From a virus, in the IMG/VR virus record IMGVR_UViG_3300047274_000223: 64,000 bases of DNA; one strand, written 5' to 3'. Each line of letters opens with the position of its first letter. Position 1 is the first letter of the stretch. Both the position numbers and the translations under genes were made by a program. Positions 24,965 through 51,275 of the stretch are shown here, one piece after another. The notes beneath the pieces are model-generated. The model saw only the letters and a list, made by a program, of their open reading frames with translations. It was not told the DNA's origin and did no database searches.

Positions 24965-24971
24965 TCAGTTA

Positions 24972-31737: not shown

Positions 31738-32163
31738 ATGGACTCTCAAGATATCGATGGGTTGTTTAGTAGGGTTCCTAGATCTTTTTATGATCTAGGA
31801 ACCTCTTTTGCGAGAAATCCTGTCACTGGTGATGCCTTGAGAGTTAGAGATGAAGCTGCAGTACTGCAAGCAATGAAAAATTTAGTTATGACTAAATTTG
31901 GTGAAAGGCTTATGGACCCAAGTATCGGGTCAGATGTGTATGGAATGCTGTTCGAACCATTAGATGCATTCTCATCTATGGAACTACAAGATAAGATACT
32001 AAATACTATCAGAAATTTTGAACCTAGAGTAGAAGTATTAGACGTTACTGTGAGTGCTGCTGAAACATCAGATGATATAGTTTCTGTAGACATTACCTTC
32101 AGAATTATTGGTGAACCTAATATTATAAACCAACAATTCATCCTAGAGAGACCTTCAAGTTAA
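31738..32163 (+). CDS. gp25: Baseplate wedge subunit gp25
   Basis: DL..SF.RNP.TGD....DE.AV..A.KNLV.T..GER..P..GS...LFEP...I..FEPRV. Confidence 0.92.
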   Translation: MDSQDIDGLFSRVPRSFYDLGTSFARNPVTGDALRVRDEAAVLQAMKNLVMTKFGERLMDPSIGSDVYGMLFEPLDAFSSMELQDKILNTIRNFEPRVEVLDVTVSAAETSDDIVSVDITFRIIGEPNIINQQFILERPSS

Positions 32164-34895
32164 TGAGACCTTCAAACTTAACATCTATAGATTTTGAAGA
32201 AATTAGAGAGTCTATAAAGTCCTACATGAGGACTAGGCCCGAATTTACGGACTATGATTTTTCTGGTTCTACACTATCTTATCTGCTAGATGTCTTAGCG
32301 TATAATACATATTACTCATCATTTAACGCGAATATGGCGTTAAATGAGTTGTTTTTGGATACAGCGACATTACGAGATAACGTTGCAAGTATTTCCAGAA
32401 TGCTAAATTATCTCCCAAGGTCAGCAAAGTCTGCTTGGGGATGCGTTACTCTTACTGTACAGACAGATTTAAATACTAGTGGAAACTTCCCTACCCACAT
32501 AACTCTCAAGAAGGGTCAAGTTGCCTCAGGAAACAATAGAGATAAGGGATTTTCATTCTGTATTCTACAAGACAAAGTAGTTGAAGTAGATAAAACTACA
32601 GGTATTTCAGTTGTTGGTCCTTTTAAGGTATACGAAGGAGATTTGTTATCATATAGTTATACTGTAGATACTACAATTGATCAAAAATTTGTCATTCCAA
32701 ATGAATATGTTGATATTGATACTCTTAGTGTATATGTAAAACAAAATGCTCAGTCAACAACAGTAGACAGATATAGTTTAGTAACAAACATTACAAATGT
32801 AGACTCAACCTCAAGATCATTTTTTGTTAGTGAGTATGAAGATAGAAGATACGAAGTTACATTTGGGGATGGCGTTATTGGAAGAGCTCTTGAAGATGGT
32901 AATGTTGTTATTATGGAATATGTTGTAACTAATGGACCAGATGGCAACAACATTAAGAGTATGAGATATGGTGGAACTATTGTAGATATTGATGGTAATA
33001 GCATCACTGCAGGATCCGTCAAATTTGAATTAAATTCCAAGACTCAACTTGGAGAAAAACCAGAAACACTAAAGTCAATCAAATTTAACGCACCAAGATT
33101 TTATTCTGCACAGAATAGAGCTGTAACAACTAAAGATTATGAAAATATCGTAAAGAGTATCTATCCAAATGCTCGCTATGTCATGGCAACTGGAGGAGAA
33201 ACATTAAGTCCTCCCATTTACGGAAAGGTCTATGTATCAGTTAAAACTAGAAACAATACAAAGTTAAACAATCTTACCAAGAAGCAGATTGTAGACGATC
33301 TCAGACCCTATACAATGGCATCTATTGAGGTTATTGTACAAGATCCAGATGAAGTTTTTATTGAATTGAACGTTTTGGTTGTTGCCGATTTGTTCCAGTC
33401 AGCAACTTCAGCAACTTCCAGTACACAAACAACACCAGATAACCTAGCATTGCCTGCAGGTAGCGCCGATCTAATTAAAGAGAAAACCCTGTTTGCAATT
33501 AAAAGATTTGCAGCTTTAGAAGATCTGGGCAATTTTAACAAGACTCTTTCAACATCAAAGATCCAAAAAGAGATTCTACAGTCAGATCCTGCAATTGTTG
33601 ATGTACTACTACAAGTAACTGTATATAAATTACTTGGATATCCTGAGGAGCAAAATAAAGGTAAGCCAATGACATGGGATGTCAATTTTGGTATTGCCTT
33701 AGATTGCTCCTGTTCGTCTTCACCTGGAGATGTAATTAAGACCAGTGGATTTTACACTGCAGAGAGACCCCAAACATTACAGTATCTAGAAGATGATGGT
33801 GCTGGTAACTTACGTCAATATTATATTGAAAATAATACAAAAGTTTATACAAACTTGTTTGCTGGTCTATATGATTGCGATAGTGGAATTATTAGAGTAG
33901 GTCCTATTGTTCCTGTTGGAGAAGCTGAATATATTCAATTATCAGTCAAACCAAAAAATCCAGCAAATATTGCCCCTGGTGAAGTAACTGGTAAATTATT
34001 AGCCAGAAGTGGTTTACTTCCTGGTACTAGTACCTCTTCTGGCGTTGGTACACCATCTGGAACTTTTACTGGTGCATCTGCTGGTGCATCTGCACCAACA
34101 ACAACTCAACAATTTACTGGTTCTTCAACTGGTCTTGGTGTTGGAGCAGCACAATCTTATGTACCAACAACACAAGCGACAAGATCCGTTCAAACTACAA
34201 CTACAGATGGATTAACTAATCTAGATGTTCCTGCATCTGTTGCAACCCAGAACTCAACTTCATCATTAACAAGTACTGGATTCCAGACACCCAATGCACC
34301 AGTTTCAATTAATGGAGTGACATTAAGCACTGGCGGTCAAATAGTTTCTGGCGGTACTCTTACATCTGGCGGTACTCTTACCGCTGGAGGAGCTATTACT
34401 TCTGGCGGAACAATCGCTGCTAGTGGAACTCTTACAGTTGGTGGAATTACTACTGTTGGAGTTGGTACTACAGCGGTTGGAGGTACAGCAACGGCAGGAA
34501 CTGCTTCTGTTGGTATTGCAGGAAATCTGGCAGTAGGATCGACTGCAACTGGCATTTCTGTAGCAGTACCTGGTACTACACTAGCAGCCGGAACTGCTGC
34601 TGTTGTAGGTCAAGGAGGAGCAGGTCCTGGAGGAAATATTGTAGTTCCTGGTGGTGGTGTAGTAGGCGGTGGTGGTGTTGTAATTGCCCCAGGTAATGCA
34701 GGAGCTCCTGGAGCAGTATTGCAAATTGCTCCACCACAAATTACTGTTGTTCCACCAGGTTCTGTACAGATTCCGAATTTCAATCCAGGTGGAATTGCTG
34801 TTGCTCCTGCTACGGCAATTAGTACTGTTCCACCTACTCTAGTAATCCCACAAATAGCTCCAGCACCTTCAAGTAGTGCAGGATGTTTTGCCTAA
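32163..34895 (+). CDS. gp6: Baseplate wedge subunit gp6 with C-terminal low-complexity extension
   Basis: LTS.DF..I...KSY...EFTDYDFSGS.LS.LLDVLAYNTYY..FNANM..NE.FLDTAT; IKFNAPRFYSAQNRAVT..DY. Confidence 0.92.
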   Translation: MRPSNLTSIDFEEIRESIKSYMRTRPEFTDYDFSGSTLSYLLDVLAYNTYYSSFNANMALNELFLDTATLRDNVASISRMLNYLPRSAKSAWGCVTLTVQTDLNTSGNFPTHITLKKGQVASGNNRDKGFSFCILQDKVVEVDKTTGISVVGPFKVYEGDLLSYSYTVDTTIDQKFVIPNEYVDIDTLSVYVKQNAQSTTVDRYSLVTNITNVDSTSRSFFVSEYEDRRYEVTFGDGVIGRALEDGNVVIMEYVVTNGPDGNNIKSMRYGGTIVDIDGNSITAGSVKFELNSKTQLGEKPETLKSIKFNAPRFYSAQNRAVTTKDYENIVKSIYPNARYVMATGGETLSPPIYGKVYVSVKTRNNTKLNNLTKKQIVDDLRPYTMASIEVIVQDPDEVFIELNVLVVADLFQSATSATSSTQTTPDNLALPAGSADLIKEKTLFAIKRFAALEDLGNFNKTLSTSKIQKEILQSDPAIVDVLLQVTVYKLLGYPEEQNKGKPMTWDVNFGIALDCSCSSSPGDVIKTSGFYTAERPQTLQYLEDDGAGNLRQYYIENNTKVYTNLFAGLYDCDSGIIRVGPIVPVGEAEYIQLSVKPKNPANIAPGEVTGKLLARSGLLPGTSTSSGVGTPSGTFTGASAGASAPTTTQQFTGSSTGLGVGAAQSYVPTTQATRSVQTTTTDGLTNLDVPASVATQNSTSSLTSTGFQTPNAPVSINGVTLSTGGQIVSGGTLTSGGTLTAGGAITSGGTIAASGTLTVGGITTVGVGTTAVGGTATAGTASVGIAGNLAVGSTATGISVAVPGTTLAAGTAAVVGQGGAGPGGNIVVPGGGVVGGGGVVIAPGNAGAPGAVLQIAPPQITVVPPGSVQIPNFNPGGIAVAPATAISTVPPTLVIPQIAPAPSSSAGCFA

Positions 34896-34934: not shown

Positions 34935-37900
34935 ATGCATAACGAACCCCAAGTATCCTTATCTGTTCTCAATCAGATTCCAGATTTTATCAGGGAAGAA
35001 CATCCACTATTTGAAGAGTTTCTACGTTCATATTATAGTTCGCTGGAAAGGGGTAGCGGACCTGTCAATATTCTAAATAATCTTCCAGATTACTTCAATC
35101 TATCGAAATATGATTTAAGGAAGTTAAATTCCACCACAAACTTAATTGGTAATATTTCACCAGATTCTAGAAATATTGAAGTTGAGTCAACGGATAATTT
35201 TCCAGATGAAAATGGAACTATTCTGATTGACGATGAAGTAATTTATTATGAGAGTGTTAGAAAATCCCCTAATGTGGTTTTAACTCCAGACATCTCTTAT
35301 AGTGAATTTAATAAGAAATTAATTACTCTTTCCAATCCATACGAGCAACTTGATGGGATAAGAGACACTTTTGACTTAAAAGCAAATAACGAACCAGTAT
35401 TTCCACCATCGGCAAGACACCTGATTGTAAGGTTATACAATGAAGTTTTGATCCCAGATGTAGATTATATTGTTCTTGGAGATAAAATTAAATTTACTTC
35501 TGTCCCAAGAGAGTTTGATCCAGTAGATCTTGGAGATTCATTTGAAGACATCAGTATTAAATATTTGAAAGGATTTAGTGAATCTACTATCACTACAATT
35601 GATAACATTGGAGTAATTAATACAGCTGTTGATGAAGAAAGATACGATTTCAATCTCAGAATTGATGGTGTACCTTTTGAACCATCATCATTAAGTTTAA
35701 TGGTCGTTATTGTAGATAATATTTTACTACGACCAAATTTAGACTATACCGTTTATGGTAGTTCTATCCTACTTAAGAATTATCCTACACAAAACTCATA
35801 CATTGGTGTTATCAATGCTCCATTATTATCGGTTGGTAATGGATTTGTTGGATATAGTGTAGTTAATAGTCAAGGGCAAGTAGAAAGAATTCTAGTTAAG
35901 AATGGTGGAAAAAATTATTCTATTGATAACACACCAAAAGTATCTCTTGTCAAAGGAGCTGGAAAGAATGCAACTGCTAGGGCTCTAATTAGTGGTGTTA
36001 AAGAAATTACATTATTGGAGGGTGGTAGAGGATATTCTAAAGAAAATCCACCAAGAGTTCTAGTCCAATCCCCAGATAATCCTGATGGATCCGTAGCAAG
36101 AGCCGCAGTAGAAGTTGATGAACAAGGACACGTATCAGAAGTTCATGTAACCTTCAGTGGAAGTGGATATGATTTTGTACCTAGAGTACAATTTATTAAT
36201 CCAACTGGTGCTGCTGTTGGAAATGTCGTTGTCAATCAAAATGGTTCTATTGTATCTGTAGATGTTCTATCTGGTGGTATTGGATACACTGTTGCTCCAT
36301 TAATTTATATTGATGATCCAATCGCCCCCAATGGTATTAAGGCATTACTTCAAGGGAATTTGGGTTCCGATGGAATACTACAATCCGTATCGGTATTGAC
36401 TGGAGGAACTGGGTATGATCAATATAATCCACCAAGAGTTGCGGTAATTCAACCAACAGGTGCTCAAGTACTGTCAGTTGATGTAGATTCATTTGGTAGA
36501 GTTGTTAATATTGAATTATTGAGTGGTGGATTTGGTTATGAGGATGTTCCTAGTGTTTATATTGTTGACGATAGAGTTGATAATATTGGAAATCCCATAG
36601 GTGGTACTGGAGCAACTGCAGTTGCTACTGTTTTTAATGGTGAGATTATTGATATTAATATTACTAATTTTGGTGAGGGTTATTCTTTAGAAGAACCTCC
36701 AAAAATCTTTATCTCTTCTCCAGTTGGAGCAAAAGCTTCTGCACAAATTGGAGAACAGCAGATTACTGGATTTGAAGTTATTGAATCTGGAATCAACTAT
36801 GTTAAATCTGAATTTGTTGGTTGTAGTAGAGGTGTGAGTGGTATTATTGGTTATGATTCCGATGAGAATGCAATTTTTAGTGGTGAGGATACTTCCACCC
36901 CATCACTACATCTTGAAGGATCTTTAGTTAAAGGTTTAGACTCAGTATTTCTAACTACCATACTAGATAGAATCGTAAAACAGTATATTCCAGGACTTCC
37001 AAAATTAGACTACAATACTGTTAATATTGCAAATATCCTAAGAACAGTAAAAGATTTTTATTCATCGAAAGGAACTAGGCAAGCAATTTCATATTTGTTT
37101 AAGGTTCTTTACGGTGTAGATATTGATATCTCGTATCCGAAAGATCAAATCATTAAGCCTTCAGCAGCATCGTGGTCAATCGATACTATCTTAAGAGCAA
37201 GATTAATTTCTGGTAATCCAGAAAATATTAGAGATACTAGCATTATTCAGGAAGAAGATGCTGTAGATACTAATGTCAAATATGCTGAAGCTACGGTTGA
37301 AAACTTTATCGCAATTCAAACTTCAGACTATGATGTTTATGAACTAGTTTTGTCTGAAGAATCTATTGTTGGTTCTTTTACAATTCCATATAAGACTAAA
37401 CTGGCAGAACCAATGACGCCAGAAACTTCAATTATTACTGTAGACTCTACAATTGGTTGGCCGGAAAGAAATGGTGAAATTATTGTTGGTACTGAAATCA
37501 TTCGATATAAAGAAAAGTCATTAACACAATTTATTGAATGTACTAGAGGAATTAATGAAACACCAGGTTCTTGGGATTCTGGTACTATCATTTCTTCAAA
37601 TTTCTACATTAGAGCAAATCCAGGTACACAGAATGAAGTCGTCATGTCTGTCCTCGGTATTGTTGAGTCTAACAATACCACATTAACCGATGAAAGTAGT
37701 TATTACTTACCTGGAGATAAACTGAGTATTTCTAAATTAGGATCTTTAGATGCATCTCCTCTTGTAACTTCATGGTTGTATAATGTTAAGAAACTAATTG
37801 AAGTTGAGTCAATTACATATGGTGGTATTGGAGATAGAACCGCAACCGTCACTTGTTCCAATCCACATGGTTTATTGGTTGGTGATCAGGTAACAGTTTA

Positions 37901-40900
37901 TGGTGCAAACCCAATTGTATATAATGGTTCTTTCCTAGTTTCTGCAAGAGAAAGTGCTTTAGTATTTAAGTATGAATTACCACAACCTGCGACATTAAAT
38001 CCACAAGGTAATATCTTAATTTCCGTTGATTTAAACAAAGGTAAGAGCGATGAGGAATCAATTAATTCTGCTATTACCAACTTTGCAACAAATATTCAGA
38101 ACACTTTCTTCAATTCATCTGATGTATATGTTGCGGCATCGGGAATTCCAAACTATAAGATTGGTCCTTTCTTAGGAACATCACTACTTCCAGGAAATCA
38201 GAGAAAGTTATATAGATTCCCAAGACTCCCACAAACAATTTCACTAAAGCCAGAAACTAAGTATGGATCAGTTGGTTCATTTATCAACGGTGTTTCGGCA
38301 TGGAATTATAAATCAAATGATATTTTTAAATATGGACCAGTAACTAAGGTAAATATTATAAATCCTGGCTCTGATTATGACGCAGATTCTCCACCAGTTT
38401 TATCAATTCGTGGTGGGGGAGGATCTGGTGCAGTCGGAAGTGTAATTGTAGACGGATCCGTAACATCCATTGAAGTCACTAATCAGGGTGATGGATATAC
38501 ATCATCACCACTAGTTTCGATTTCTGGAGGAAAAGGTTCTGGCGCATCAGCTACTGCAATTATCACAAACGGTAAGGTAACTCGTATTTTAGTAAATACG
38601 ACTGGATCTGGATATACTTCAGCACCAACAATTACTGTTACTGGCGGGGGAGGTTTTGGTTGTACTGCTGTAGCATCAGTTAGAGGTCCAATCAAAGAAG
38701 TTGTTGTCGAAGATTATGGAAATGATTACACTTCAGCACCTTCAGTTTCTCTGAGTAGTGGGGAAGGTGCAGCTGCTCAAGCATATGTAAGTAATGGAAG
38801 AATTCTGTCTATTGCTGTTATTGCATCAGGTAATGGTTACACTACTGCACCAAAGGTTGTAATTGTTGGTGAGGGATATGGTGCTGTTGCTATTGCAAAT
38901 ATTCAGACCGAAGGATCTGAAGCAGGAAAGGTAACTTCAATTACAATCCTAAACAGAGGTATTGGTTATAAACAAGGTACTACACAAATCAGATTAGAAT
39001 CTGTTGGTCAAGGAGCAGTATTTAATACTGAAATTTTTGGGTGGACATTTAATTTACAAGAAACCGTCAATTTTGATTATGCTAATGGTTCAATTTTTGA
39101 GGGATTCAATAAACAGTTTGGTGGTGAATATGGTCACGTATCCAATCCAAAGCAACTCAGATATGTTCTCGGAGATAACTTAACTGTTGTCCAGGGACAA
39201 ATTGTAGAAAAGGAAAGTGGTATTGTTCACTCCCCCATTATTGGTTGGGCTTTTGATGGTAATCCAATTTACGGTCCATATGGACTATCAGACCCAACCA
39301 ATCTTTCTAGTACAATTGTACCAATTAATAGTAGTTATGTATTAAAGAGTAATCTGGTATTTGACGCTCAAATCAATCCCACTCCAGTCAGAATTGATGG
39401 ACCATCCCTGGATGAATATCCAGCTGGTACTTTTATTGAAGATTATATCTATCAATTCAGAAGTGAACAATTCTATTTGGATGAATATAATGGTAGATAT
39501 TGCAAAACACCAGAGTATCCAGAAGGAACCTATGCGTATTTCATTACACTAAATTCTGATGGTTCTCCAGCATTTCCGTATATTGTTGGACCAAACTTTT
39601 ATTCTATTCCAGATTCTTGGAACTTGACTCAGTTTGCTGTTCAGTCAAATATCCCGTCTGGTATTGTTAGATATAGAGCACCATTTGAAAATGTTGATAT
39701 TGATGTTGATAGAGCTCCAAATGAAAGCACAAATGCACTAACTTTAGAAAATGGAGACATTTTAACCTTTGAGGTCGAAGATGAGAATAGAGATGGTGTT
39801 ATTGATGAATTTGAAGAAGGAGATCCAGATCAAATCTTCGAAGAGTCTAAACTACAACTATTTGATTACTTCCCCAAAATCGACTTTTCCTCAAAGGTCG
39901 ATATCGAAATTGAAACCACTACCAAATTTGAAGACGCTAAGATTAGTGGATTCCTAATCGAAAATGCGGGAGAAAATCATCAGGTTGGTGACAGACTCAT
40001 TTTTGATGATACTGGAACTGAAGGATATGGAGCTTCTGCTGTAGTTTCCGAAATTGTTGGTAAAAATATCACCTCATACAACTATGAATATAGTGCATCC
40101 CAAGATGAATATTTTGGTATTGTGCAGACAGATTCTCCACATAACATGGTTATCGGAGACATTGTTAATGTGACTACAGTTCCATTAATGGAACCAACTA
40201 CAAAGAGCATCTATGTTAGAACTATTCAAGGTCTTGAAGATGTTGTTGTAGTAACTCCAGGACTAGGATACGATCCAGAAATTGATATTCAAGCGGTAAT
40301 TGATAGTGATACTGGAATTGGTGCAGTTGTAGAACCGATTATTTCATCTACTGGTTCATTGAATGATGTGAGAATTATCAATTCGGGCAGAAATTATCTA
40401 ACGGATCCAAAAATTAGGATTTCTCATCCACAAGTACAGAAGAGATCTATTTATTTTGCAATTAGTAGATACTATGAAGGTTCAGTAAAGATCTTTAAGT
40501 CTATTTCAGATTCGTCAAAAAATACTTATATTGTTGGATCTGTAAAATCATCAAACAATGATACTCATGCATTTATTTCAAAGATTAATAGTGAAGGTAC
40601 TGTACTTTGGTCTAAGTCGCTAACAGCAATCCAACCAGGAAGTACAAAGAGAGCAGAATTTGTTGATATTGTGAAGAATGGATCTGATCTCTATGTAATT
40701 GGTAATACATATCCAAATACTCCTTCAGCAGATAACTTTAATCCTGATCTTCTCTTTGCAAAGTATACGGAAAATACTAGTGGTACTTCAGTAACATTAA
40801 CTTGGCAAAAAGAAGCTGCTGGTATTAGTGGTGTCTTAAGAAAAGACTATATCACTGGAATTTCTGCACTTAACAATAATATTATTATCTGTGGACATAC

Positions 40901-43900
40901 GACTACTAATTCTACTGGTGCATATGATGGTATCTTAATGTACTTATCTCCTGGTGGAGACATTTTACATAAGAGAAAATTAACATCAACAACAGGAACA
41001 GAAAAATTACTTGGAATTAAGGTTGATTCTGATGATAATATCTACGTTGTTGGTCAAACAGTAGAGAATAATTTACTTGTAGCAAAATTAAGAATCGTTG
41101 AGAGTAAAATTATTTCAACTTGGCAAAAACAGGTTGTTTATAGTGGTCAAGAATTCCATGATATTGCATTTGATATTGATGAATATGATGAATTGTTCAT
41201 CACTGCGTCAATTGGTACAACAACTAGAAATAAACTTGGTCTAGTTAAACTTGATGGAAATGCAAATGTTATCGCACAGAAGGAATATAGTATCCCAAGC
41301 ATTTATTCGATTATTGGAGCCGGATGTACTATTGATGTATTCTCCGATCTGAATGTTGGTTATTCTGCTGTTGATACCAACGGTAAGAAGACCTCAGGCG
41401 TAATTAAATTGGACTATAGGGGTAATGTAATCAATTCATATACTTTGGGTGGTGTTGAAGGTTATAACCTAGTGCAGGTCCTCTCGGACGTGTCTGGTGA
41501 TCCATACTTTGTGGGTAACATCCAACCAAATAGATCACAATTCCTATACAACGGAAATGACTATACCGATTTTATCGGTAGACAAGGCAATTTAACAACA
41601 TCTGGCACTGTAAGTATCAATACAGATCCAAAGTGGGGTACTAACGCATTTACTGTTGGTCAAAATGGCGTTCTATCTACTCCAACACTATCAAGTTCTG
41701 GTAATTGGACTGTTGATGCTTGGATTAAGTGGGACTCAGCGGCTACGGCAAAGGTTGCTCAAATTTTCAGAATCTATGATTCGTCTTTAACTGATGGTAT
41801 CAAGGTTCAATTATTTGCAGATAATAGTTCACCATCGACTTTAGGGAAATGGAGAATTTCAAATGATGGTGCTACTGTATCAACGTTCTCGGCATCAACA
41901 AATAATGTAACTCTTCTTTCTAGTGGTTATTACTATATTGCTGTCAATAAGTCATACAATTCTTCTACTGGTATTTCAACTTATACTCTATACTTTAATG
42001 GTACTCAGCAAGCACAAATTACATTAACAAATAATATCAACCCAACTCAAATTCAAGTTGGTTCGTCAACTACCTATAATTCTTGGCCAACGAAGATTGA
42101 TAGTTTCAGACTGTCAAATTATGCAATTACTGCAACAACTATTCCAACAGCGGCATTCTCTGGATACGATTATGGAACAGAAGTTGGTTACTTAATGAAG
42201 TTCGATAAGAATGCAGATGCAGAAAGAATGGGTGATATCACCTTAACAAATAATGGTATTATTACTACAAGAACTACATCGTCAATTAGTGATAATCAAC
42301 TAGAACTTCTAGTTGAAACATATGCTTTGGGCCCAGATGGTCTACAAGTGTTAGATATGAACGATACTACTTCATACCTAACACAAGACTATCATTTACC
42401 ATCATCATATGCTGATGTATGGAGCAGTAGAACTGCAACAATTCCCTCCCCTGGAGGAAGAAAGGCCGTATTTGAAACTAGTGCGTATGGTAAATACTTC
42501 TTTAGGCATTTTGTAATTGATAAGTTTGATAATGTTAGAGTCCTAGAAATCAATCAGGATTTCAATTTTGATATTGGTACTAGAATCAATCAGAAAAATT
42601 CTATTGGTTCAACAGTTGGTTCTGCAAGAATTGTCGATATCGACACATCTAACGATCTTTTATATGTTACCGATGTCTCTGGAACTTTCTCCACAAATAG
42701 TGGTTATTTAGAAAGTTCCGATCTCAAGATTAATGAAATTGAAGATTACACATTTGCATATATTGATGCTTCTAGCCCAGGAACTTTTGGCATCTCAATT
42801 CCCGCTGAGGTGGAAGCAACATTTAAAACTTACTCCGATGAAGATTATCTAATCAGAATTGATGAAATAATCACTGGAGCTTCTTATGCCAGAGGATCTG
42901 TAGTTTCTCTTGGACCAGAGTATTTTAGTTTCTCAGCAGATAGAAGATCTGTAACTATTTCTGGACTAGCATCCGTAACACAAATTACACTAATTGTCAA
43001 TTTAACAAAGACTCTTCAAATTGATTTAATTTCAAACACGAACAGAATCTTTGCAAGATCTACAACTTCGCACTATCTATCCGTTGGAGAAAACATTTAT
43101 ACAGAAACTGCTCCACAATATTCATATGCCGATGGATCTTTCTACATCAAAGAAATTTTAAGCAAGAAAGAATTCATTTTCGAAATTGATAGCGTCCCAG
43201 GATCGTTTATTGGAAGTGGTACTCAACTATATGTCTATGTTAAGCATCCTGTGTTTAAGTTCATTTATGGACAGCAGTATACTTTTGATGTTACTCACGT
43301 ATCGAATGAAGGTTACTATCTATCATTCTATAGAGATAATTTAAATAAGATTGAATATACATTCAAGAATATTGTTAGAAAGGGTATTCCTGGTAGAGAT
43401 GCACCAGGAGCATCTCCATTCATTTCATTCAAGGTCACTGATGATGTCTCAAATATCAGTTACTATGCAGACCCATCTAGAATTGGTCCAAAGAGCCCTG
43501 TTTCGAACTTCTCGTATATTGACGTTGTAAAGAGTCCATACATCGGTAAATTTGAAATTATCGAAACTTCTGGTGGTACAGTAACAGTTGGAGATAATAA
43601 GTTTAAATTTAAGATTGGTATTGATCCAGAAAAGAACGCACAATCTTCACTATCATCATATTCAACCCAATCGTCTAAAGTTGCTGGATCTATTGCAAAT
43701 ATTAGACTTGTTAATGGTGGAGGTTTCTATAAGAAACTACCTGTGATTACTGACATTCAATCAGTAAGAAAAATCGAAAGAGTTGAAATTAGAAGCCCTG
43801 GAACAGAATATCAACCAGGTGAATATTTTGGTGTACCTATTTTAGGTGATGGTGCTGGTGGAAAAGTCAGAATTATTGTAGATGAGAATAGTGATCCTGC

Positions 43901-46900
43901 AGGACAAATCATTGAAGTCGCTGTAACAGATCCTGGTAAAGGATATACTGAAGCATATATTGATGTTGACGCTATTGATGGTATTCTGGGTCCACAATTG
44001 AGTGGTTCTGGTGCTGTTTTAGATGTCATCATTCCACCAAAAGGAACTGGATCTTCTATCTTTGTGAAAGGAGAAAATGTAGGTAAGATTAAGAAACTGA
44101 AGAATAATAACTTTGGTTTTAATTATACACATGATTATACATTAAGACCAGAAATTACATTCCCAGTAAACTTACAATTAATTAATACGAGTATTCTTAG
44201 CAACATAAAAGTTACAGATCCTGGTACTGGTTATACATCTATTCCTCAGGTAGTGATCACAGGTGGTGGTGGATCTGGAGCTGAAGCTATTGCGGAAATT
44301 AGAAATGGTAGAATTAGTGGTATTGTAATCAAGAATGCTGGATTTGGTTACAGTACTGCTCCTGTAGTTGAGTTAAAGACATCCTTTACTTATGTTGTGA
44401 ACTTAGACCTCGGACTATTCCAGATGGCATATCCCCATGGAATTACTAATGGATCTGAGGTTACATTTACTGTAGAGGATTTGGGTGAAGGAACTGCATT
44501 CCCACTAACCTCATTCGGTTATATCATCCCAGGTCAGATCTATTATGCAATTGCAGGAGAATTGGCAGGTCTGGAAGATGATCAACTAAGAATTGCATTA
44601 ACCCCACAAGATGCAGAATCTGGCAACTATATCTCTTTTGCTAATGCTGGTAATGGAAGACAAATTTTATTAACTAACTCATTTGGTGGCGCAGCAGAGG
44701 CCATTGTTGAAACTGGAAGATTCTTATCTGGTGAACAGATATTCCAAGGTGAAAGTTTAGAAACTGCATCAGCAATTGGTTATGTTTCCAATAATGACGG
44801 ATGGCAAATTGGACCAAGAATCCTCAAATTAATTAACACAACAGGAACATTCTCAGTAGGTCAAATTGTAAATGGTGTCATCTCAAAAGCAAGTGGTACT
44901 ATTGATAACATCAACGCTGCAAAAGGAGTTATTGAGGTTGATTCAATCACCAAGACTCCTGGTAAGTTCTTAGATGATGTCGGCAAACCAAATGAAATTG
45001 TACAGAAAATTCAAGACTCATACTTATACCAACAGTTCTCTTATAATGTAAAATCTCCGATTTCTATCGATCAATGGAAGACCACAGTAATTGACAATAC
45101 TCACCCAACAGGATTTAAGATCTTTGGTGAAATTCAAATTGAAGAGAACCAGAAAGGTCTCACCGATAAGGTCGATTTTGAACTAACGAAGAGCGTAAAT
45201 CTCGTCGAAAGTTCTGTGGTTGCTCACATTGACAACTTTGGTCTAGTAGAACCAGTTTACAAAGAATTTGATAATACTCAAGTACTATTCAGAACCAAAA
45301 AACTAACATCATCCGAGGAAATTCTAACTTCATATGTGCAGAAAATTGATGATATTGCATACCTATTTGATGGGGAGAGAACATCTTTCCCACTAACCAT
45401 TGATGGGAATACGGTAATTGCTAACACCAATCAATTACAACTAGTGATTAATGGTGTTGCACAGTCTCCTGGAACATCTTTCCAAGTTCAGCAAGGAAGT
45501 ATCGTATTTAATGAGGCTCCTCCCGCTCCAACTAAGATCAGTTATGCTAGATTGACACTGCAATTCTTGCAAAGTTTTGAACTTCAAATTAGTAATGTCA
45601 GTGGTATTTTGCCCGAGCTCGGACAAACTATTAGAGGTCTCATTAGTGGTGTTTCGGCAACTGTGATTGAATCAACAACATCAACAATCACAGTATTTAA
45701 CAAGAGTGGAAATTTTACTCCTGGGGAACTACTCCTCGGATCTGCTACTGGACTTAGTGCCCAATTCGATTCTGAAGTATTACTTGTAAATGATAATGTA
45801 TTTGAATTCAAAGAATCCATCACAAATACAAACAAAAAAACAGCAGAAGTTGAAGAGATTAATTTAAATATTACAAATAGCGTTGTAACTAACGAGATTG
45901 TAATTAGTAAGACTTCTGGTACTTATAATAGTCCCGCAGGTCTTCTAGCGATTGGAATTAATGATTTTATTGTTTCGGCCAAAACCAAAGTTATTGCTAA
46001 AGTAATTTCGGTTTCACCATATATTGATCCTGAAACTGGAGCTCCTATTTCATCAATCGCAATTAGTGATCCAAGTACTTTCTTCGGATTGTTATATAAT
46101 AGAATTGTCTCACCAGATTATCCAAACGTAATCTTAGATGACATCAGCAAGTCTAGTGTAGAAATTGTAGATATCTCAGATTCCGATTTGAAGATTGAGG
46201 GAAGAATTCCAGAGTTCGAAACAATTAATAATATTACTGCAGAGTATACCGTAAACTCTGGCACTGGTATTGTAGAAGAAGAGTTTATCCAAAACATCAA
46301 AATTAACTACATTAATTCGACTGGAGATTATGCCAATGGTGAGGTCGTCAAAGTTAATAAGTTAGCATATAAGAATCTAACTGGAGGAAACTTCCAGGCT
46401 GGAGATATTGTTTCAAATGGATCTGGATATACTGCCAATGTTATTGGTGTAAGTTATGCATTGAAATATCTATTCTTAGGAGAGCAAACAGGTTCGTTTA
46501 GTATTGGTGACACATTATCATGTGATAGATCATTTGTATCTAATGATGATATTGTTGCTGGTAGAAATGCTGATGCATCCGACCTAATTCTTGCCAACAA
46601 ACTTCTGATTGCAGATGTTGCAGTCGGTAGAATGCTTGCTGCCTACCCTGGATTTACTGTACCAGGAGGAAACCAAAATTGCAAGGATGATATTGTTGAT
46701 GTTCTAGATGAAATTTGCTTTAACCTTAAGTATGGTGGAAACCACAGGGCATATGATGTAGGTCAACTCTATATCGACAACACATATCTACAGGATGAGA
46801 GAGATGAATCGGTTTATGCTTTCAACCAAGCAAGAGATATGGCAATTCAGGCCATGCGTAATGAATCAATTACTATTGGCGGATATTCGTCTCTCAGTCA

Positions 46901-49900
46901 GTATTTTGATCTAACTGTAGAAGGAGATCAGTCTGGAGAAGCAGGGGTTTATGTTCCTGGTGACTGTGCCGATGTTGCAGCATCACTAACTACATTATTT
47001 GGTATTGTAACTCAAGCTATTGGAAGTGATGCTACTCCTGGCAATTTAACTGGTATTACAAGAACTAATATTGGAACAGTATTTGCAGAAATCTCAGCAT
47101 ATTTGGAGATTCCATTTAATGTGGAGCAAATTAATCCTACGACCGATACTATTACAACTTTCCAATACTTTGACGATACCCAACATAGATTTAGAGATGC
47201 AGCGAACTTACTAAGATTGAATTCCACTTATATTATTGAAGAAGCTGTTGGTAGAATGAAGAATTTGTATCCAGATTTGATTATCCCAGGTGATGAAACT
47301 GGAGGATCTGATGGAACTTCCAGATGTAAACTCGACCTATCATTACTTCTAAATGCTACCATCGATGATTTGGAGTATGGTGGAAATTATGAAACTCTTG
47401 CTGCTGGACGTTTTTACTTAGATGAAAACGGTGGTATTAGATTTATATCCAGACAAATTCTGCAGAGCGTATATGCTCACCAACAGATGAGTCTATTGTG
47501 TCAGGAAGCAGTACAAGGTACTTTATCAAATACACCAGAATATACCAATGAAATTCCAGTATTACCTCTAGACATTACCATTGATCCATCACCAGTAAAC
47601 GGAGTATATTGTGCAGATGTAGTGTCAAAAATTGATACTTTATGGTCTTTAATCAATGAGGTAATTACTACTACTGGAGATGTGTATAAGGATGCATCAA
47701 ATGCTCTTTGGTTTAATAGAGACTTTATTGCAGATGAAGCGGTAGGTAAAACAACTAACTATTTCACATATTACTTGAATGGAACTGAGTATAAGGCCTT
47801 CGAATATCCAGGTGGAAATAATGGTGTAACCAAGTGTACCAGAGATATTGCAGATTATATCATCCCATCGATTATTGCAGACTTAATGAGTGGAGGCGAC
47901 TCAAATATAATTGATGCAATGACATATTATATTGATGTTAATGACGTTCTCCATGTTAAAGATGAACTTCTACCAACAATCTATGCATTTGAGCAAGTAA
48001 ATATTCTTTGCCAATATGCAATTGATAATTGGGTAATAACGGGTACTTCTACTGTCTATTCACCACAATTTGGTAATGTGGCAAATATGTATTTTGATGA
48101 ATCGATCACAGAAGATGATGGTACTTATGGTACAAACTGTGCAAGAGTAAAGTCTGCAATTGACACTTTATTCACAAAAGCTATTGCTATTCTATTACCA
48201 GAAAGAGATCAATATATTCTCTCGGGTAGACATTACGATGCGGCCAATCTTATCGAGTCCAATAAACTTCTAATTGCTGATGTTGCAGTTGGCAGAATGC
48301 TTGCTGCCTTCCCTGGATTTACTGTACCAAATGGCAATCAAAATTGTAAAGATGATATTGTCGATATTCTTGATACTCTTTGCTTTAACTTGAGATTTGG
48401 TGGAAATCATAAAGTATATGATGCAGCGCAGATTTATATTACAAATTCAGGATTGTTGAATGGGGAGCAAACAGAATCTATCTATGCATTTAATCAGGCA
48501 AGAGATCTGGCAATTGAGGTCATGCGTAATCAGACTATTGCGATTGGCGGATATTCATCAAGAACTCAAGTTAAAGATCTGACAATTGTTGCCGATCCTA
48601 TAACTGGTTCCAATACAAGTGCATCTTCTTGTGCAAATGTAGCATCTACAATTACGACATTGATTGCAATTGTAACTCAAGCAGTGCAAAATGGCAATTT
48701 AACTGGGATTACAAGAACAACTGATAGTACATCAAATAACTTATATAGAGATGCTGCTAAGTTGATCCTATTCAACAAAGAGTATTTCAAGGAGGAGATT
48801 GCTGGAGCAGTAACTGCACAGTATCCTGGATTTAATTTTGGTGGGGCAAACTCTACCGAATTGCCAACATACAGAACAAAATGCAAGAGAGACATTGGAT
48901 ATATTGTAGATGCAATTGTATATGACTTACTAACAAATGGCAACTCCGCAATCCTTTTTGCAACACAGTCCTATATTGATGCTGCAACGGGAACTTTAAT
49001 CTCCTTACAGGGTGAACTGGTTCAGACTCTATATGCATATACACTATTAAAAACTTTCATGAAGTCTGCTATTAGAGAGAACTTAACTTCACCTTCACCA
49101 AATGTTTCATTTTATGCATACTCTGATAATAATATCGCTCTAACTGCCGATCATCTAACTACAATTGATACCTTCCTAGATGATAGGATGTCAATTCTAT
49201 TAGGAACTCTTAATAATTCAAACTATATTGAAGCAAATGAAATTATTGAATATAATGCAATCACAATTCCATCTAGAGTGTATCCATCCAGAATTGATAT
49301 TACTGGAATTAGCGGTAGACTAAGTGCTGGTGATTATATCTATGGACAAACTTCAGGTATCAAAGGAGAAATAGAATCTATCTTTACAAATAGAGCTACT
49401 ATTAAGAAGACTTTGAAGAGAGTAAGAATTAACTTCACTCTTCCACTAGAGAGATTCATTGAGAATGACACAGTAACCGTTCAAGGTTCAGCAACAAATA
49501 ATGGTATAGTGTATTCATACTCATACTCAGAAAACTTTAATTATATTGATGTTGATGTAAACTCTGGTTCTTTCACCCCAGGTGATATTCTAATTAATGG
49601 TGAAGGTTACACGGCAACGGTAGTTTCTGTAACAGATAAAGTACAGATTTCAAAACTAATTGGTCAATTTAGCAATGGAGATAAGATTAGAGAATTTGGT
49701 TCTAGTACAGAATTTACAATTTCTAATTATTCTAATGTAAGTGCTCCAGTTTTAGATAACACTGGTTCCAAATTGACCCTGGAAACGGAGTCTTATTTTG
49801 GAAACTTTAATGTTTCGAATGTCATTTATTCAAACACTAGTGATGTTTATATTGATGTGAAATATAACTTGGGAACACAAGTTGGTCTTGGTGATCTAGT

Positions 49901-51275
49901 ACTAACTAAAAAAATCTATAAACTAGAAGTTGTATTGAGTGATCCAGCTGTTGTAAGTTTTCCTTTGGGAAATCAACTTCAAGATTCGGCATTGTTAACA
50001 ACAATTGGCACTATTGTTGCATTTATTCCAAATGATCCTGAGGCGCCTACAACTGCAGAGATTTATGTCGGTAACTTAGAACAAGACTTCTTTACAAATG
50101 GATCTACAGTAAATTGTTATGAACCTGGAAATAACTTCCCAATTGGTATTGCAACTGTTACTTCTGCACAAGAAATAACATCTGAGGCTTATGGATTTAT
50201 TGAAAAAATTGATCAGGTTGGTGAAGGCTATAGAATTTATTTAAGTTCTGTAAAAGGTACTTTTAATCCATACGCACAACTGTTGGGAAGATTCGGTTAC
50301 AAGTCTCTGATTACAGATACAAAATCTATTATTGGAAGAGTGTCAAGAAGTTTTAGAGGATTTGATGGTGTACAAGATACTTTTGATCTAACTATCAATA
50401 ATGGAACCGCATATCTACCAAACCCAGATGGTCATATGTTGGTATTCTTGAATGGCGTTCTACAACCACCAACAACTTCGTATTCTGCGTTTAGTGATGT
50501 TATTCAGTTCACCGAACCACCAGAACTAGGAGCTTCTTTCCACGCCGTTTATATTGGCAAATTGAGACAACTAGATGATATTGGATTTGAATTTGATTCT
50601 CTGAGAAATAGTTTCAACTTGAAACTAGATGAAGTTTTCTACTCACTAACAGTTACTTCTGGTTCGGAAGCATCAAATATTAAACCAGAAAATAATATTA
50701 TTATTTCACTAAATGGTATCATTCAAGAACCTGGAGTTGCGTTTGAACTTGTTGGTTCTCGTGTAATTTTTGCTGAGATTCCAAGAGCAGGTTCTAGTTT
50801 TGTTGCATTCTCATATATTGGTTCTGACGCTGACGTTATTGCTTCTGAAGTTATCCCACCAATTGAAGCGGGAGATCAACTTTTACTTGAAGGTGAAGAT
50901 CAGGATAGAACAGTTGCTATTATTGAATCTTCAAACTCTCTAGTAACATTTGACTACACTGGATCTGTTTTTGGTAGAAATGCATCTGCTCTTGTATCCT
51001 TGATCAAGGGAAGAATTACTGAGTTGTCAGTAACCTCATCAGGTAACGGTTATACTTCGAGACCGTCCGTATCCATTGACTCCACAACTGGTTTTGATGG
51101 GCAAGTTAAGGCTCTAGTCGGTGTTTCTAGAGTTGATGTCGTTGATCGAGGAGGTGGATACAAGTATCCAGAGATTGAAATTGTTAATGATGTATCTGAT
51201 ACTCCCGCACTACTTATCTTCGACTCCACTGGTACATCTTTCGATACGGAAGATATTACGTTCGACCAGGCATAA
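34935..51275 (+). CDS. gp7: Giant baseplate wedge initiator gp7-like protein (5446 aa)
   Basis: N-terminal Q.P.FIREE.P.F..FL..YY; gp7 block IKDFY.SKGT..AI..LFK.LYG...I.YP; HP.GFKIFGE; position between gp6 and gp8. Confidence 0.85.
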   Translation: MHNEPQVSLSVLNQIPDFIREEHPLFEEFLRSYYSSLERGSGPVNILNNLPDYFNLSKYDLRKLNSTTNLIGNISPDSRNIEVESTDNFPDENGTILIDDEVIYYESVRKSPNVVLTPDISYSEFNKKLITLSNPYEQLDGIRDTFDLKANNEPVFPPSARHLIVRLYNEVLIPDVDYIVLGDKIKFTSVPREFDPVDLGDSFEDISIKYLKGFSESTITTIDNIGVINTAVDEERYDFNLRIDGVPFEPSSLSLMVVIVDNILLRPNLDYTVYGSSILLKNYPTQNSYIGVINAPLLSVGNGFVGYSVVNSQGQVERILVKNGGKNYSIDNTPKVSLVKGAGKNATARALISGVKEITLLEGGRGYSKENPPRVLVQSPDNPDGSVARAAVEVDEQGHVSEVHVTFSGSGYDFVPRVQFINPTGAAVGNVVVNQNGSIVSVDVLSGGIGYTVAPLIYIDDPIAPNGIKALLQGNLGSDGILQSVSVLTGGTGYDQYNPPRVAVIQPTGAQVLSVDVDSFGRVVNIELLSGGFGYEDVPSVYIVDDRVDNIGNPIGGTGATAVATVFNGEIIDINITNFGEGYSLEEPPKIFISSPVGAKASAQIGEQQITGFEVIESGINYVKSEFVGCSRGVSGIIGYDSDENAIFSGEDTSTPSLHLEGSLVKGLDSVFLTTILDRIVKQYIPGLPKLDYNTVNIANILRTVKDFYSSKGTRQAISYLFKVLYGVDIDISYPKDQIIKPSAASWSIDTILRARLISGNPENIRDTSIIQEEDAVDTNVKYAEATVENFIAIQTSDYDVYELVLSEESIVGSFTIPYKTKLAEPMTPETSIITVDSTIGWPERNGEIIVGTEIIRYKEKSLTQFIECTRGINETPGSWDSGTIISSNFYIRANPGTQNEVVMSVLGIVESNNTTLTDESSYYLPGDKLSISKLGSLDASPLVTSWLYNVKKLIEVESITYGGIGDRTATVTCSNPHGLLVGDQVTVYGANPIVYNGSFLVSARESALVFKYELPQPATLNPQGNILISVDLNKGKSDEESINSAITNFATNIQNTFFNSSDVYVAASGIPNYKIGPFLGTSLLPGNQRKLYRFPRLPQTISLKPETKYGSVGSFINGVSAWNYKSNDIFKYGPVTKVNIINPGSDYDADSPPVLSIRGGGGSGAVGSVIVDGSVTSIEVTNQGDGYTSSPLVSISGGKGSGASATAIITNGKVTRILVNTTGSGYTSAPTITVTGGGGFGCTAVASVRGPIKEVVVEDYGNDYTSAPSVSLSSGEGAAAQAYVSNGRILSIAVIASGNGYTTAPKVVIVGEGYGAVAIANIQTEGSEAGKVTSITILNRGIGYKQGTTQIRLESVGQGAVFNTEIFGWTFNLQETVNFDYANGSIFEGFNKQFGGEYGHVSNPKQLRYVLGDNLTVVQGQIVEKESGIVHSPIIGWAFDGNPIYGPYGLSDPTNLSSTIVPINSSYVLKSNLVFDAQINPTPVRIDGPSLDEYPAGTFIEDYIYQFRSEQFYLDEYNGRYCKTPEYPEGTYAYFITLNSDGSPAFPYIVGPNFYSIPDSWNLTQFAVQSNIPSGIVRYRAPFENVDIDVDRAPNESTNALTLENGDILTFEVEDENRDGVIDEFEEGDPDQIFEESKLQLFDYFPKIDFSSKVDIEIETTTKFEDAKISGFLIENAGENHQVGDRLIFDDTGTEGYGASAVVSEIVGKNITSYNYEYSASQDEYFGIVQTDSPHNMVIGDIVNVTTVPLMEPTTKSIYVRTIQGLEDVVVVTPGLGYDPEIDIQAVIDSDTGIGAVVEPIISSTGSLNDVRIINSGRNYLTDPKIRISHPQVQKRSIYFAISRYYEGSVKIFKSISDSSKNTYIVGSVKSSNNDTHAFISKINSEGTVLWSKSLTAIQPGSTKRAEFVDIVKNGSDLYVIGNTYPNTPSADNFNPDLLFAKYTENTSGTSVTLTWQKEAAGISGVLRKDYITGISALNNNIIICGHTTTNSTGAYDGILMYLSPGGDILHKRKLTSTTGTEKLLGIKVDSDDNIYVVGQTVENNLLVAKLRIVESKIISTWQKQVVYSGQEFHDIAFDIDEYDELFITASIGTTTRNKLGLVKLDGNANVIAQKEYSIPSIYSIIGAGCTIDVFSDLNVGYSAVDTNGKKTSGVIKLDYRGNVINSYTLGGVEGYNLVQVLSDVSGDPYFVGNIQPNRSQFLYNGNDYTDFIGRQGNLTTSGTVSINTDPKWGTNAFTVGQNGVLSTPTLSSSGNWTVDAWIKWDSAATAKVAQIFRIYDSSLTDGIKVQLFADNSSPSTLGKWRISNDGATVSTFSASTNNVTLLSSGYYYIAVNKSYNSSTGISTYTLYFNGTQQAQITLTNNINPTQIQVGSSTTYNSWPTKIDSFRLSNYAITATTIPTAAFSGYDYGTEVGYLMKFDKNADAERMGDITLTNNGIITTRTTSSISDNQLELLVETYALGPDGLQVLDMNDTTSYLTQDYHLPSSYADVWSSRTATIPSPGGRKAVFETSAYGKYFFRHFVIDKFDNVRVLEINQDFNFDIGTRINQKNSIGSTVGSARIVDIDTSNDLLYVTDVSGTFSTNSGYLESSDLKINEIEDYTFAYIDASSPGTFGISIPAEVEATFKTYSDEDYLIRIDEIITGASYARGSVVSLGPEYFSFSADRRSVTISGLASVTQITLIVNLTKTLQIDLISNTNRIFARSTTSHYLSVGENIYTETAPQYSYADGSFYIKEILSKKEFIFEIDSVPGSFIGSGTQLYVYVKHPVFKFIYGQQYTFDVTHVSNEGYYLSFYRDNLNKIEYTFKNIVRKGIPGRDAPGASPFISFKVTDDVSNISYYADPSRIGPKSPVSNFSYIDVVKSPYIGKFEIIETSGGTVTVGDNKFKFKIGIDPEKNAQSSLSSYSTQSSKVAGSIANIRLVNGGGFYKKLPVITDIQSVRKIERVEIRSPGTEYQPGEYFGVPILGDGAGGKVRIIVDENSDPAGQIIEVAVTDPGKGYTEAYIDVDAIDGILGPQLSGSGAVLDVIIPPKGTGSSIFVKGENVGKIKKLKNNNFGFNYTHDYTLRPEITFPVNLQLINTSILSNIKVTDPGTGYTSIPQVVITGGGGSGAEAIAEIRNGRISGIVIKNAGFGYSTAPVVELKTSFTYVVNLDLGLFQMAYPHGITNGSEVTFTVEDLGEGTAFPLTSFGYIIPGQIYYAIAGELAGLEDDQLRIALTPQDAESGNYISFANAGNGRQILLTNSFGGAAEAIVETGRFLSGEQIFQGESLETASAIGYVSNNDGWQIGPRILKLINTTGTFSVGQIVNGVISKASGTIDNINAAKGVIEVDSITKTPGKFLDDVGKPNEIVQKIQDSYLYQQFSYNVKSPISIDQWKTTVIDNTHPTGFKIFGEIQIEENQKGLTDKVDFELTKSVNLVESSVVAHIDNFGLVEPVYKEFDNTQVLFRTKKLTSSEEILTSYVQKIDDIAYLFDGERTSFPLTIDGNTVIANTNQLQLVINGVAQSPGTSFQVQQGSIVFNEAPPAPTKISYARLTLQFLQSFELQISNVSGILPELGQTIRGLISGVSATVIESTTSTITVFNKSGNFTPGELLLGSATGLSAQFDSEVLLVNDNVFEFKESITNTNKKTAEVEEINLNITNSVVTNEIVISKTSGTYNSPAGLLAIGINDFIVSAKTKVIAKVISVSPYIDPETGAPISSIAISDPSTFFGLLYNRIVSPDYPNVILDDISKSSVEIVDISDSDLKIEGRIPEFETINNITAEYTVNSGTGIVEEEFIQNIKINYINSTGDYANGEVVKVNKLAYKNLTGGNFQAGDIVSNGSGYTANVIGVSYALKYLFLGEQTGSFSIGDTLSCDRSFVSNDDIVAGRNADASDLILANKLLIADVAVGRMLAAYPGFTVPGGNQNCKDDIVDVLDEICFNLKYGGNHRAYDVGQLYIDNTYLQDERDESVYAFNQARDMAIQAMRNESITIGGYSSLSQYFDLTVEGDQSGEAGVYVPGDCADVAASLTTLFGIVTQAIGSDATPGNLTGITRTNIGTVFAEISAYLEIPFNVEQINPTTDTITTFQYFDDTQHRFRDAANLLRLNSTYIIEEAVGRMKNLYPDLIIPGDETGGSDGTSRCKLDLSLLLNATIDDLEYGGNYETLAAGRFYLDENGGIRFISRQILQSVYAHQQMSLLCQEAVQGTLSNTPEYTNEIPVLPLDITIDPSPVNGVYCADVVSKIDTLWSLINEVITTTGDVYKDASNALWFNRDFIADEAVGKTTNYFTYYLNGTEYKAFEYPGGNNGVTKCTRDIADYIIPSIIADLMSGGDSNIIDAMTYYIDVNDVLHVKDELLPTIYAFEQVNILCQYAIDNWVITGTSTVYSPQFGNVANMYFDESITEDDGTYGTNCARVKSAIDTLFTKAIAILLPERDQYILSGRHYDAANLIESNKLLIADVAVGRMLAAFPGFTVPNGNQNCKDDIVDILDTLCFNLRFGGNHKVYDAAQIYITNSGLLNGEQTESIYAFNQARDLAIEVMRNQTIAIGGYSSRTQVKDLTIVADPITGSNTSASSCANVASTITTLIAIVTQAVQNGNLTGITRTTDSTSNNLYRDAAKLILFNKEYFKEEIAGAVTAQYPGFNFGGANSTELPTYRTKCKRDIGYIVDAIVYDLLTNGNSAILFATQSYIDAATGTLISLQGELVQTLYAYTLLKTFMKSAIRENLTSPSPNVSFYAYSDNNIALTADHLTTIDTFLDDRMSILLGTLNNSNYIEANEIIEYNAITIPSRVYPSRIDITGISGRLSAGDYIYGQTSGIKGEIESIFTNRATIKKTLKRVRINFTLPLERFIENDTVTVQGSATNNGIVYSYSYSENFNYIDVDVNSGSFTPGDILINGEGYTATVVSVTDKVQISKLIGQFSNGDKIREFGSSTEFTISNYSNVSAPVLDNTGSKLTLETESYFGNFNVSNVIYSNTSDVYIDVKYNLGTQVGLGDLVLTKKIYKLEVVLSDPAVVSFPLGNQLQDSALLTTIGTIVAFIPNDPEAPTTAEIYVGNLEQDFFTNGSTVNCYEPGNNFPIGIATVTSAQEITSEAYGFIEKIDQVGEGYRIYLSSVKGTFNPYAQLLGRFGYKSLITDTKSIIGRVSRSFRGFDGVQDTFDLTINNGTAYLPNPDGHMLVFLNGVLQPPTTSYSAFSDVIQFTEPPELGASFHAVYIGKLRQLDDIGFEFDSLRNSFNLKLDEVFYSLTVTSGSEASNIKPENNIIISLNGIIQEPGVAFELVGSRVIFAEIPRAGSSFVAFSYIGSDADVIASEVIPPIEAGDQLLLEGEDQDRTVAIIESSNSLVTFDYTGSVFGRNASALVSLIKGRITELSVTSSGNGYTSRPSVSIDSTTGFDGQVKALVGVSRVDVVDRGGGYKYPEIEIVNDVSDTPALLIFDSTGTSFDTEDITFDQA
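46572..49210 (+). repeat. Five tandem helical repeats resembling the phycobiliprotein core, inside gp7
   Basis: DA..L...N...I.....A......P...C..D........DL..GG(N/D) recurs, starting at 46572, 47196, 47691, 48237 and 48750. Confidence 0.85.

Follow-up and report, generated by a model that had tools for sequence, protein, structure and literature searches.

Phycobiliprotein-like domains with retained bilin-attachment residues in a giant gp7-like protein of a T4-like cyanophage

The gp7-like protein and its five repeats

The viral DNA considered here, IMG/VR record IMGVR_UViG_3300047274_000223, has a length of 64,000 nucleotides (the window) and belongs to a T4-like cyanophage, the closest isolate being S-CREM1. 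It encodes a giant gp7-like protein, a baseplate wedge component read from a single open reading frame (ORF) on the plus strand (Table 1). In frame inside this ORF, at 46572–49210 and in the distal half of the protein, lie five tandem repeats of approximately 170 residues each (R1–R5), which correspond to residues 3876–4777 of the protein. The repeats are established homologues of phycobiliproteins (PBPs), the bilin-carrying proteins of the cyanobacterial light-harvesting antenna, and it is likewise established that they retain the residues at which PBPs attach their chromophore. Whether they carry bilins in the virion is weighed below.

As had been claimed from the letters alone, the region is a genuine array: The repeats share 25–59% pairwise identity, with R1 and R4 as the most similar pair (59%), and each matches a joint repeat hidden Markov model (HMM) with E values of 1e-62 to 1e-75. 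The envelopes of this HMM define the repeat coordinates in Table 1. The first conserved Cys, termed site A (residues 3916, 4131, 4301, 4471, and 4650 in R1–R5), opens a C-x-x-D motif in every repeat, at exactly the five codons named in the original prediction. Of the six motifs of this kind in the entire protein, five lie in the repeats at homologous positions, and 13 of the 22 Cys residues fall in the repeat region, which makes up 16% of the length. Two features are not part of the original prediction. R1–R4 carry a second conserved Cys (site B) that aligns with the β-Cys153 of PBPs, and the Arg of the C-x-R-D motif occurs only in R3 and R5, with CKDD in R1 and R4 and CKLD in R2. In addition, R3 bears a 9-residue insertion behind the second helix.

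Table 1. Features of the gp7-like ORF and its upstream neighbor in the window, with the conserved Cys sites of the PBP-like repeats.
Feature	Position	Strand	Site A (Cys codon)	Site B (Cys codon)	Remarks
gp7-like giant baseplate wedge protein	34935..51275	+			5446 residues; single ORF
R1	46554..47096	+	NCKDD (46680)	GDCADV (46965)	β-type PBP-like globin domain
R2	47178..47690	+	RCKLD (47325)	YCADV (47610)	
R3	47673..48239	+	KCTRD (47835)	NCARV (48138)	full C-x-R-D
R4	48219..48749	+	NCKDD (48345)	SCANV (48630)	
R5	48732..49262	+	KCKRDIGY (48882)	no site B Cys	α-like; full C-x-R-D
gp6-like baseplate wedge subunit	32163..34895	+			directly upstream of the gp7-like ORF; synteny anchor
YHYH domain PF14240	38943..39554				within the giant ORF, upstream of the PBP-like array; Pfam E 3.9e-27
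ConA-like lectin / Laminin_G_3 PF13385	41673..42143				within the giant ORF, upstream of the PBP-like array; Pfam E 2.4e-10

Homology to phycobiliproteins

At the level of sequence profiles, the 879-residue region matches the Pfam family PF00502 in four stretches with an E value of 2.5e-14 and 54 bits (cut-off 22.2). The original prediction had proposed this search for each repeat separately, and here the outcome is divided: The array exceeds the cut-off clearly, and the single repeats stay below it, three of them with 13.5–18 bits and two without a match. The significance, therefore, comes from the array. R2 provides the best stretch (profile positions 16–84) and alone reaches 18 bits at an E value of 0.003. 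A phmmer search of the region against the PDB sequences returned the α chains of phycocyanin and phycoerythrin as the best matches (E 0.002). The motif KCKRDIGY of R5 pairs with KCARDIGY of 6hrn_A—seven of eight residues being identical and the Cys falling on Cys84—so that the likeness to C-phycocyanin α put forward in the original prediction holds against database sequences. A profile built from 33 repeat copies of the window and eight IMG/VR contigs (A1) matched 137 PDB sequences at E values up to 1; every one of the 60 listed is a PBP subunit, and the best E value is 7e-6. Alignment of A1 with CpcB/CpcA from two cyanobacterial plasmids by hhalign yielded a probability of 96.5% and an E value of 7.5e-10 over 124 columns, and tblastn among 7.3 gigabases of plasmid sequence gave cpcA genes as the best matches.

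The fold was modeled by AlphaFold for R5 (predicted local distance difference test, pLDDT, 90.5; predicted template modeling score, pTM, 0.89) and R1 (pLDDT 88.8, pTM 0.88). For the R5 model, the matches listed by Foldseek against the PDB are all PBPs with template modeling (TM) scores of 0.57–0.67, and VIA-align superposes residues 1–161 onto chain residues 31–184 with a Z score of 17.0 and a root-mean-square deviation (rmsd) of 2.2 Å over 147 residues. The R1 model aligns with phycoerythrin β (7ap5_B; Z 17.5, rmsd 2.0 Å over 142 residues), its residues 1–157 corresponding to residues 31–184 of that chain. For both models, the best 50 entries in VIA-align are PBP chains throughout, and the globin fold of the PBP type expected by the original prediction is, hence, recovered.

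The N-terminal X/Y helices, which had been suspected to be missing, are indeed absent in three kinds of alignment, all of which start at chain residue 31–39: Positions 6–64 of the A1 profile correspond to residues 38–102 of the PDB chains, columns 7–156 of the hhalign alignment to residues 39–171 of CpcB/CpcA, and residue 1 of the R5 and R1 models is placed at chain residue 31–33. Taken together, Pfam, the PDB profile search, hhalign, and the structural alignment of the two models establish the five domains as diverged homologues of the PBP globin core, helices A to H, that are devoid of the X/Y hairpin. The same lines of evidence place the site A Cys on the bilin-attachment Cys and the Asp at +3 on the bilin-contacting Asp.

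Conservation of the chromophore sites

At site A, neither the Cys nor the Asp varies among the five repeats of the window or among the 33 copies of the clade. A wider sample was obtained by running the A1 profile against 1.84 billion representative proteins, of which 1373 matched at E values up to 0.001; the best 150 of these, giant proteins themselves, contributed 1505 copies of the domain that span site A. Site A carries the Cys in 97%, the Arg at +2 in 94%, and the Asp in 99% of these copies, which are otherwise only 25–30% identical, and no position of the family is better conserved than these three and one Tyr. In PBP structures, Asp85/87 hydrogen-bonds the pyrrole nitrogens of the bilin and Arg84/86 binds a propionate; an empty domain would, therefore, have no obvious use for them. 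Site B is aligned with the β-Cys153 (motif GDCS) by both the HMM and hhalign. It is retained in 45% of 392 family copies and is lacking in R5, as it is in the α subunits. Regarding copy number, some representative proteins of approximately 6000 residues feature 33–35 matched stretches of the domain, far above the count in the window.

The arrangement of the copies varies as well. In S-PM2 p088 (7980–10540) and Syn1 (record 21459–23132), the domains are not simply tandem but follow the order of three to four N-terminal helix pairs (profile positions 2–40), one full domain, and three to four remainders (41–164). This layout looks as if one domain had been placed within another, at the loop that precedes the Cys helix.

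The Cys residues could also serve in redox chemistry, metal binding, or cross-linking—inter-subunit disulfides or thioether links stabilizing an extracellular baseplate—instead of bilin attachment. In favor of such use, extracellular virion proteins can use disulfides, and R1–R4 hold three Cys each. The third of these lies at codon 46716 in R1, and every R2-type and R3-type copy keeps a third Cys within the motif LCQ; that of R1 and R4, however, is not kept in more distant relatives. Moreover, the Cys of site A stands together with Arg and Asp, the other residues of the PBP chromophore motif, and, if the fold is conserved, sites A and B would match two separate bilin pockets of the β subunit and, as judged by PBP structures, should lie far apart. 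This explanation is, therefore, considered unlikely.

The baseplate context

The assignment of the giant protein as a gp7-like baseplate wedge protein, which agrees with the label given in the original prediction, is justified by synteny with gp6 and by the annotation of its homologues. All 20 cyanomyovirus genomes compared have a match to the upstream ORF in their gp6 region, with E values from 0 to 2e-74. The best protein match of the giant ORF is SCREM1_163 of S-CREM1, annotated "baseplate wedge subunit," which shares the five-repeat layout and is 62% identical at the amino acid level in the repeat region. In P-SSM4 and P-SSM2, the homologues bear the annotation gp7 and are positioned after gp25 and gp6. 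Among the PHROGs families, the giant protein matches virion structural and tail fiber families, and PF23786 (Baseplate_wedge) gives a weak match that spans only 46 residues and, with 26.6 bits, stays just under the cut-off of 27. Upstream of the array, the protein features a YHYH and a ConA-like lectin domain (Table 1), which fit a host-binding distal part; the C-terminal approximately 670 residues have no family match.

Relatives of the repeat region are detectable only at the protein level: Megablast against 50,697 phage records returned nothing, and 363 phage records match by protein, all of them cyanophages by organism name. Of the matches examined, only S-SKS1, which is siphovirus-like, and one unclassified marine virus do not belong to the T4-like cyanomyoviruses. 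S-SKS1 encodes a single PBP-like domain with both Cys residues (NCADD and GSCANV) in the 928-residue protein SWZG_00012 (8521–11307). As this phage, of the genus Llyrvirus, stands outside the Kyanoviridae, the domain has spread beyond the T4-like cyanophages. In addition, a scan of bacterial genomes gave one contig only: The whole five-repeat region is encoded with 68% identity at 19302–25923 of CAYVOK010000024.1, a 42-kb contig of a metagenome-assembled genome labeled "uncultured Acidimicrobiaceae bacterium." In all likelihood, this contig stems from a cyanophage and was misbinned.

The context also bears on the notion of an intracellular role, in which the domains would mimic host PBPs or serve as decoys—binding lyases, linkers, NblA-type factors, or free bilins—with their place in a structural protein being incidental. 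The domains are host-derived, and interference of cyanophages with phycobilisomes is known, a viral NblA being one example (PMC12695635). However, the domains invariably form part of giant baseplate or fiber proteins of the structural gene block, and in the present case baseplate genes lie on both sides of the gp7-like gene. They lack the X/Y helices used for PBP–PBP assembly, and among the matches examined no free-standing phage copy occurs. A decoy function is, thus, very unlikely.

Co-occurrence with cpeT and other bilin genes

Most T4-like cyanophages carry a gene for a T-type bilin lyase, the role of which "remains unresolved" (PMC3037559), and T-type lyases serve the β-153 position (PMC10452541), which is the site retained in R1–R4. 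Whole phage records were searched with the repeat model and with Pfam families, and 17 genomes of T4-like cyanophages were compared. The domains and cpeT (PF06206) go together in 17 of 17: S-CREM1, S-PM2, P-SSM4, P-HM1, P-HM2, S-SM1, Syn33, Syn19, Syn1, S-SSM5, P-SSM7, and Syn9 have both, and P-SSM2, S-SM2, S-SSM7, S-CREM2, and S-CRM01 have neither. An unfiltered hmmsearch recheck of the gp7 region of P-SSM2 found no domain. This co-occurrence is a new finding of the present analysis. In the window, tblastn with four phage CpeT proteins found no cpeT. The CpeT of P-HM1 reportedly binds phycoerythrobilin tightly without transferring it to the host β subunit.

In two phages, the genes are close neighbors. 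S-PM2 (5953–7929) and Syn1 (19950–21459) carry a full-length-type cpeT 1–1.5 kb upstream of a giant ORF with PBP-like domains, which encodes 3792 residues in S-PM2 and 4026 in Syn1; in S-PM2, a gene for a 2-oxoglutarate-Fe(II) oxygenase lies in between. The GenBank record of S-PM2 lists 16 transfer RNA (tRNA) features at 168556–173383, all tagged S-PM2p218 and within the coordinates of the p218 coding sequence. The p218 region reads as a stop-free frame of 3792 residues, and the tRNA coordinates look stale or shifted.

The original prediction had seen in the domains a possible substrate on the phage side for the phage bilin genes ho1, pcyA/pebS, and cpeT. For cpeT this agrees with the distribution; genes of bilin synthesis do not follow it and were rejected as partners. 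A bilin reductase is present in P-SSM2, which has no PBP-like domain, and S-PM2 and S-CREM1, both with domains, gave no match for a bilin reductase or a haem oxygenase; the search for haem oxygenase covered three genomes and came out negative in each. Cluster C cyanophages, which carry an S-type lyase gene (PMC10665884), were likewise rejected as carriers of the domain, since the repeat model found none in S-CREM2, S-B68, S-N03, S-H34, and S-CRM01, with a positive control that worked.

Light-dependent adsorption

A link to the light-dependent adsorption of cyanomyoviruses had also been proposed. Two phages, P-HM1 and P-HM2, fail to adsorb when kept in darkness (Liu et al. 2019, PMC6628666), and the adsorption of S-PM2 is light-dependent but independent of host photosynthesis (PMC6628666). 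P-SSM2 and the podoviruses P-SSP7 and P-GSP1, on the other hand, adsorb in the dark (PMC6628666). Cys-bearing domains are present in P-HM1, P-HM2, and S-PM2 and absent from P-SSM2 and P-SSP7. The proposed link, thus, agrees with the few published phenotypes, which make up a very small sample.

Proposed bilin binding by virion domains

Binding of bilin by the domains is the most likely reading of these sequences, at a probability of about 0.5. It is favored because the three residues of site A that contact the bilin are kept at such high levels across the 1505 copies. The scarcity of Cys elsewhere in the protein and the single Cys of R5-type copies also speak for it, and a precedent exists in globins outside the antenna that have a CXRD motif and attach bilins without lyases (PMC10151467).

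The gp7-like protein would be made late in infection in the host cytoplasm, amid host bilins and lyases, where phycoerythrobilin, phycourobilin, or phycocyanobilin would be available. Site A, the equivalent of Cys82/84 in all five repeats, may be loaded by an S/U-type lyase of the host or autocatalytically, and site B, the equivalent of β-Cys153 in R1–R4, by the T-type lyase CpeT of the phage itself. The finished baseplate would then carry bilins on its periphery with up to nine sites per chain and, if the copy number of gp7 is as in T4, six chains. More speculatively, absorbed light may alter the distal baseplate or the fiber apparatus in its conformation or dynamics, such that attachment is favored in the light. 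Such light gating is a minority possibility. Equally doubtful is the full picture of the virion as a biliprotein photoreceptor, the bilins of which would be attached by host lyases and the orphan CpeT and which, as a free particle, would sense light and confine adsorption to daytime. If true, this picture would account for two observations at once, namely that cyanomyoviruses adsorb in a light-dependent manner and that cpeT is carried by phages infecting hosts without a target site for it.

The main rival is an empty structural or adhesive module, a tentative but credible alternative. A PBP gene captured from the host would have lost its X/Y helices and been multiplied in baseplate and fiber proteins as a rigid helical block or spacer without bilin, with the conserved Cys, Arg, and Asp serving folding or contacts between domains. 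The wide use as a repeat unit (1373 representative proteins, a single one holding as many as 33 matched domains) is typical of structural modules, and the helices needed for PBP assembly are absent. P-SSM4 is a case in its favor: Its gp7 (record 70560–77051) keeps three to four detected copies, all of which have lost both Cys residues, with AQLAR, QKKTD, and VVQNN at site A, and the fold, hence, has a use even where the sites are gone. Its sister phages, Syn19 and P-SSM7, retain the Cys. In addition, the Arg is missing from three of the five repeats in the window (R1, R2, and R4) and from the copies with NCEDD and RCKTD that many gp7 proteins carry. However, structure alone hardly explains why conservation is concentrated at exactly the three bilin-contacting positions in copies that are otherwise so divergent. 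The protein is also Cys-poor outside the array. R5-type copies have a single Cys, which excludes a disulfide within the domain for them, and the domains co-occur with the orphan lyase gene cpeT and sometimes adjoin it.

Several observations weigh against bilin binding, beyond the lost Arg and the subthreshold PF00502 scores of the single repeats. Binding is predicted from sequence. The Cys-less copies of P-SSM4 persist in a phage that still has cpeT; the fold can, therefore, persist without its sites. Conversely, S-SKS1 has a domain with both Cys residues, yet no cpeT. In a tree of gp6, the genomes without domain and cpeT form two clades—cluster C, and S-SM2 together with S-SSM7 and P-SSM2 (support 99)—which amounts to two changes per trait, and an independent-pairs test has one or two usable pairs and cannot reach significance. 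With the exceptions of S-SKS1 and P-SSM4 added, the co-occurrence was rejected as statistical proof, and the link to cpeT appears to rest on about two independent events. The S-type lyase gene of the domain-free cluster C phages demonstrates, furthermore, that a phage lyase alone implies no phage substrate. The correlation with light-dependent adsorption, finally, comprises about three to four independent lineages.

Significance

No paper was found that describes PBP-like domains in virion proteins, and such domains are unmentioned in the papers on S-CREM1 and S-CREM2 and in Sullivan 2005 and Sullivan 2010. If the domains carry bilins, this phage would be, as far as known, the first virus particle to contain a photopigment. 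A testable mechanism would then be at hand for the failure of S-PM2, P-HM1, and P-HM2 to adsorb in the dark (PMC6628666) and for the puzzle of cpeT in phages (PMC3037559), and the uses of the PBP fold would be widened beyond antennae, alongside the bilin biosynthesis-associated globins (BBAGs). Natural controls exist in the domain-free P-SSM2, S-SM2, S-SSM7, and cluster C and in the Cys-less copies of P-SSM4. Even if the domains are empty, a host antenna protein captured and multiplied as a building block of the virion is an unusual case of host-gene exaptation.

Comparison with known systems

The gp7 of T4 phage has approximately 1030 residues. It shares with the window protein the position after gp6 in the baseplate block and homologues annotated as gp7; the Pfam match of the window protein to Baseplate_wedge is weak and stays below the cut-off. 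The window protein differs by more than 4000 additional residues, which include the lectin-like, YHYH, and PBP-like modules.

The β subunits of PBPs—CpeB, CpcB, and the β chains of cryptophyte phycoerythrin and phycocyanin—superpose on the phage domains with their globin core of helices A–H at a Z score of 17 and approximately 2 Å. The equivalents of Cys82 and Asp85 are present in five of five repeats, and that of Cys153 in R1–R4 (GDCA compared with GDCS). Four differences separate the phage domains from these subunits: They lack the X/Y hairpin, so that αβ monomers, trimers, and rods are not expected; they are fused in tandem inside a virion protein of 5446 residues, at an identity of 11–22%; the equivalent of Arg84 is gone from R1, R2, and R4; and their chromophore binding is predicted only. 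The α subunits CpcA and CpeA resemble R5, which likewise has a single Cys in a nearly identical motif, and they provide the best single-sequence matches (E 0.002). Compared with them, R5 is devoid of the X/Y helices, and structural alignment places β chains slightly higher.

BBAGs are PBP paralogues outside the phycobilisome that do not harvest light (Rockwell et al. 2023, PMC10151467), and those with a CXRD motif attach bilins covalently without lyases (PMC10151467). The likeness to the phage domains, drawn from the published description of BBAGs, is that of PBP relatives employed outside the phycobilisome. BBAGs, however, are single-domain cellular proteins clustered with genes for bilin reductase and haem oxygenase, whereas the phage domains are part of virion proteins, and their coding sequence sits inside a baseplate gene among other baseplate genes.

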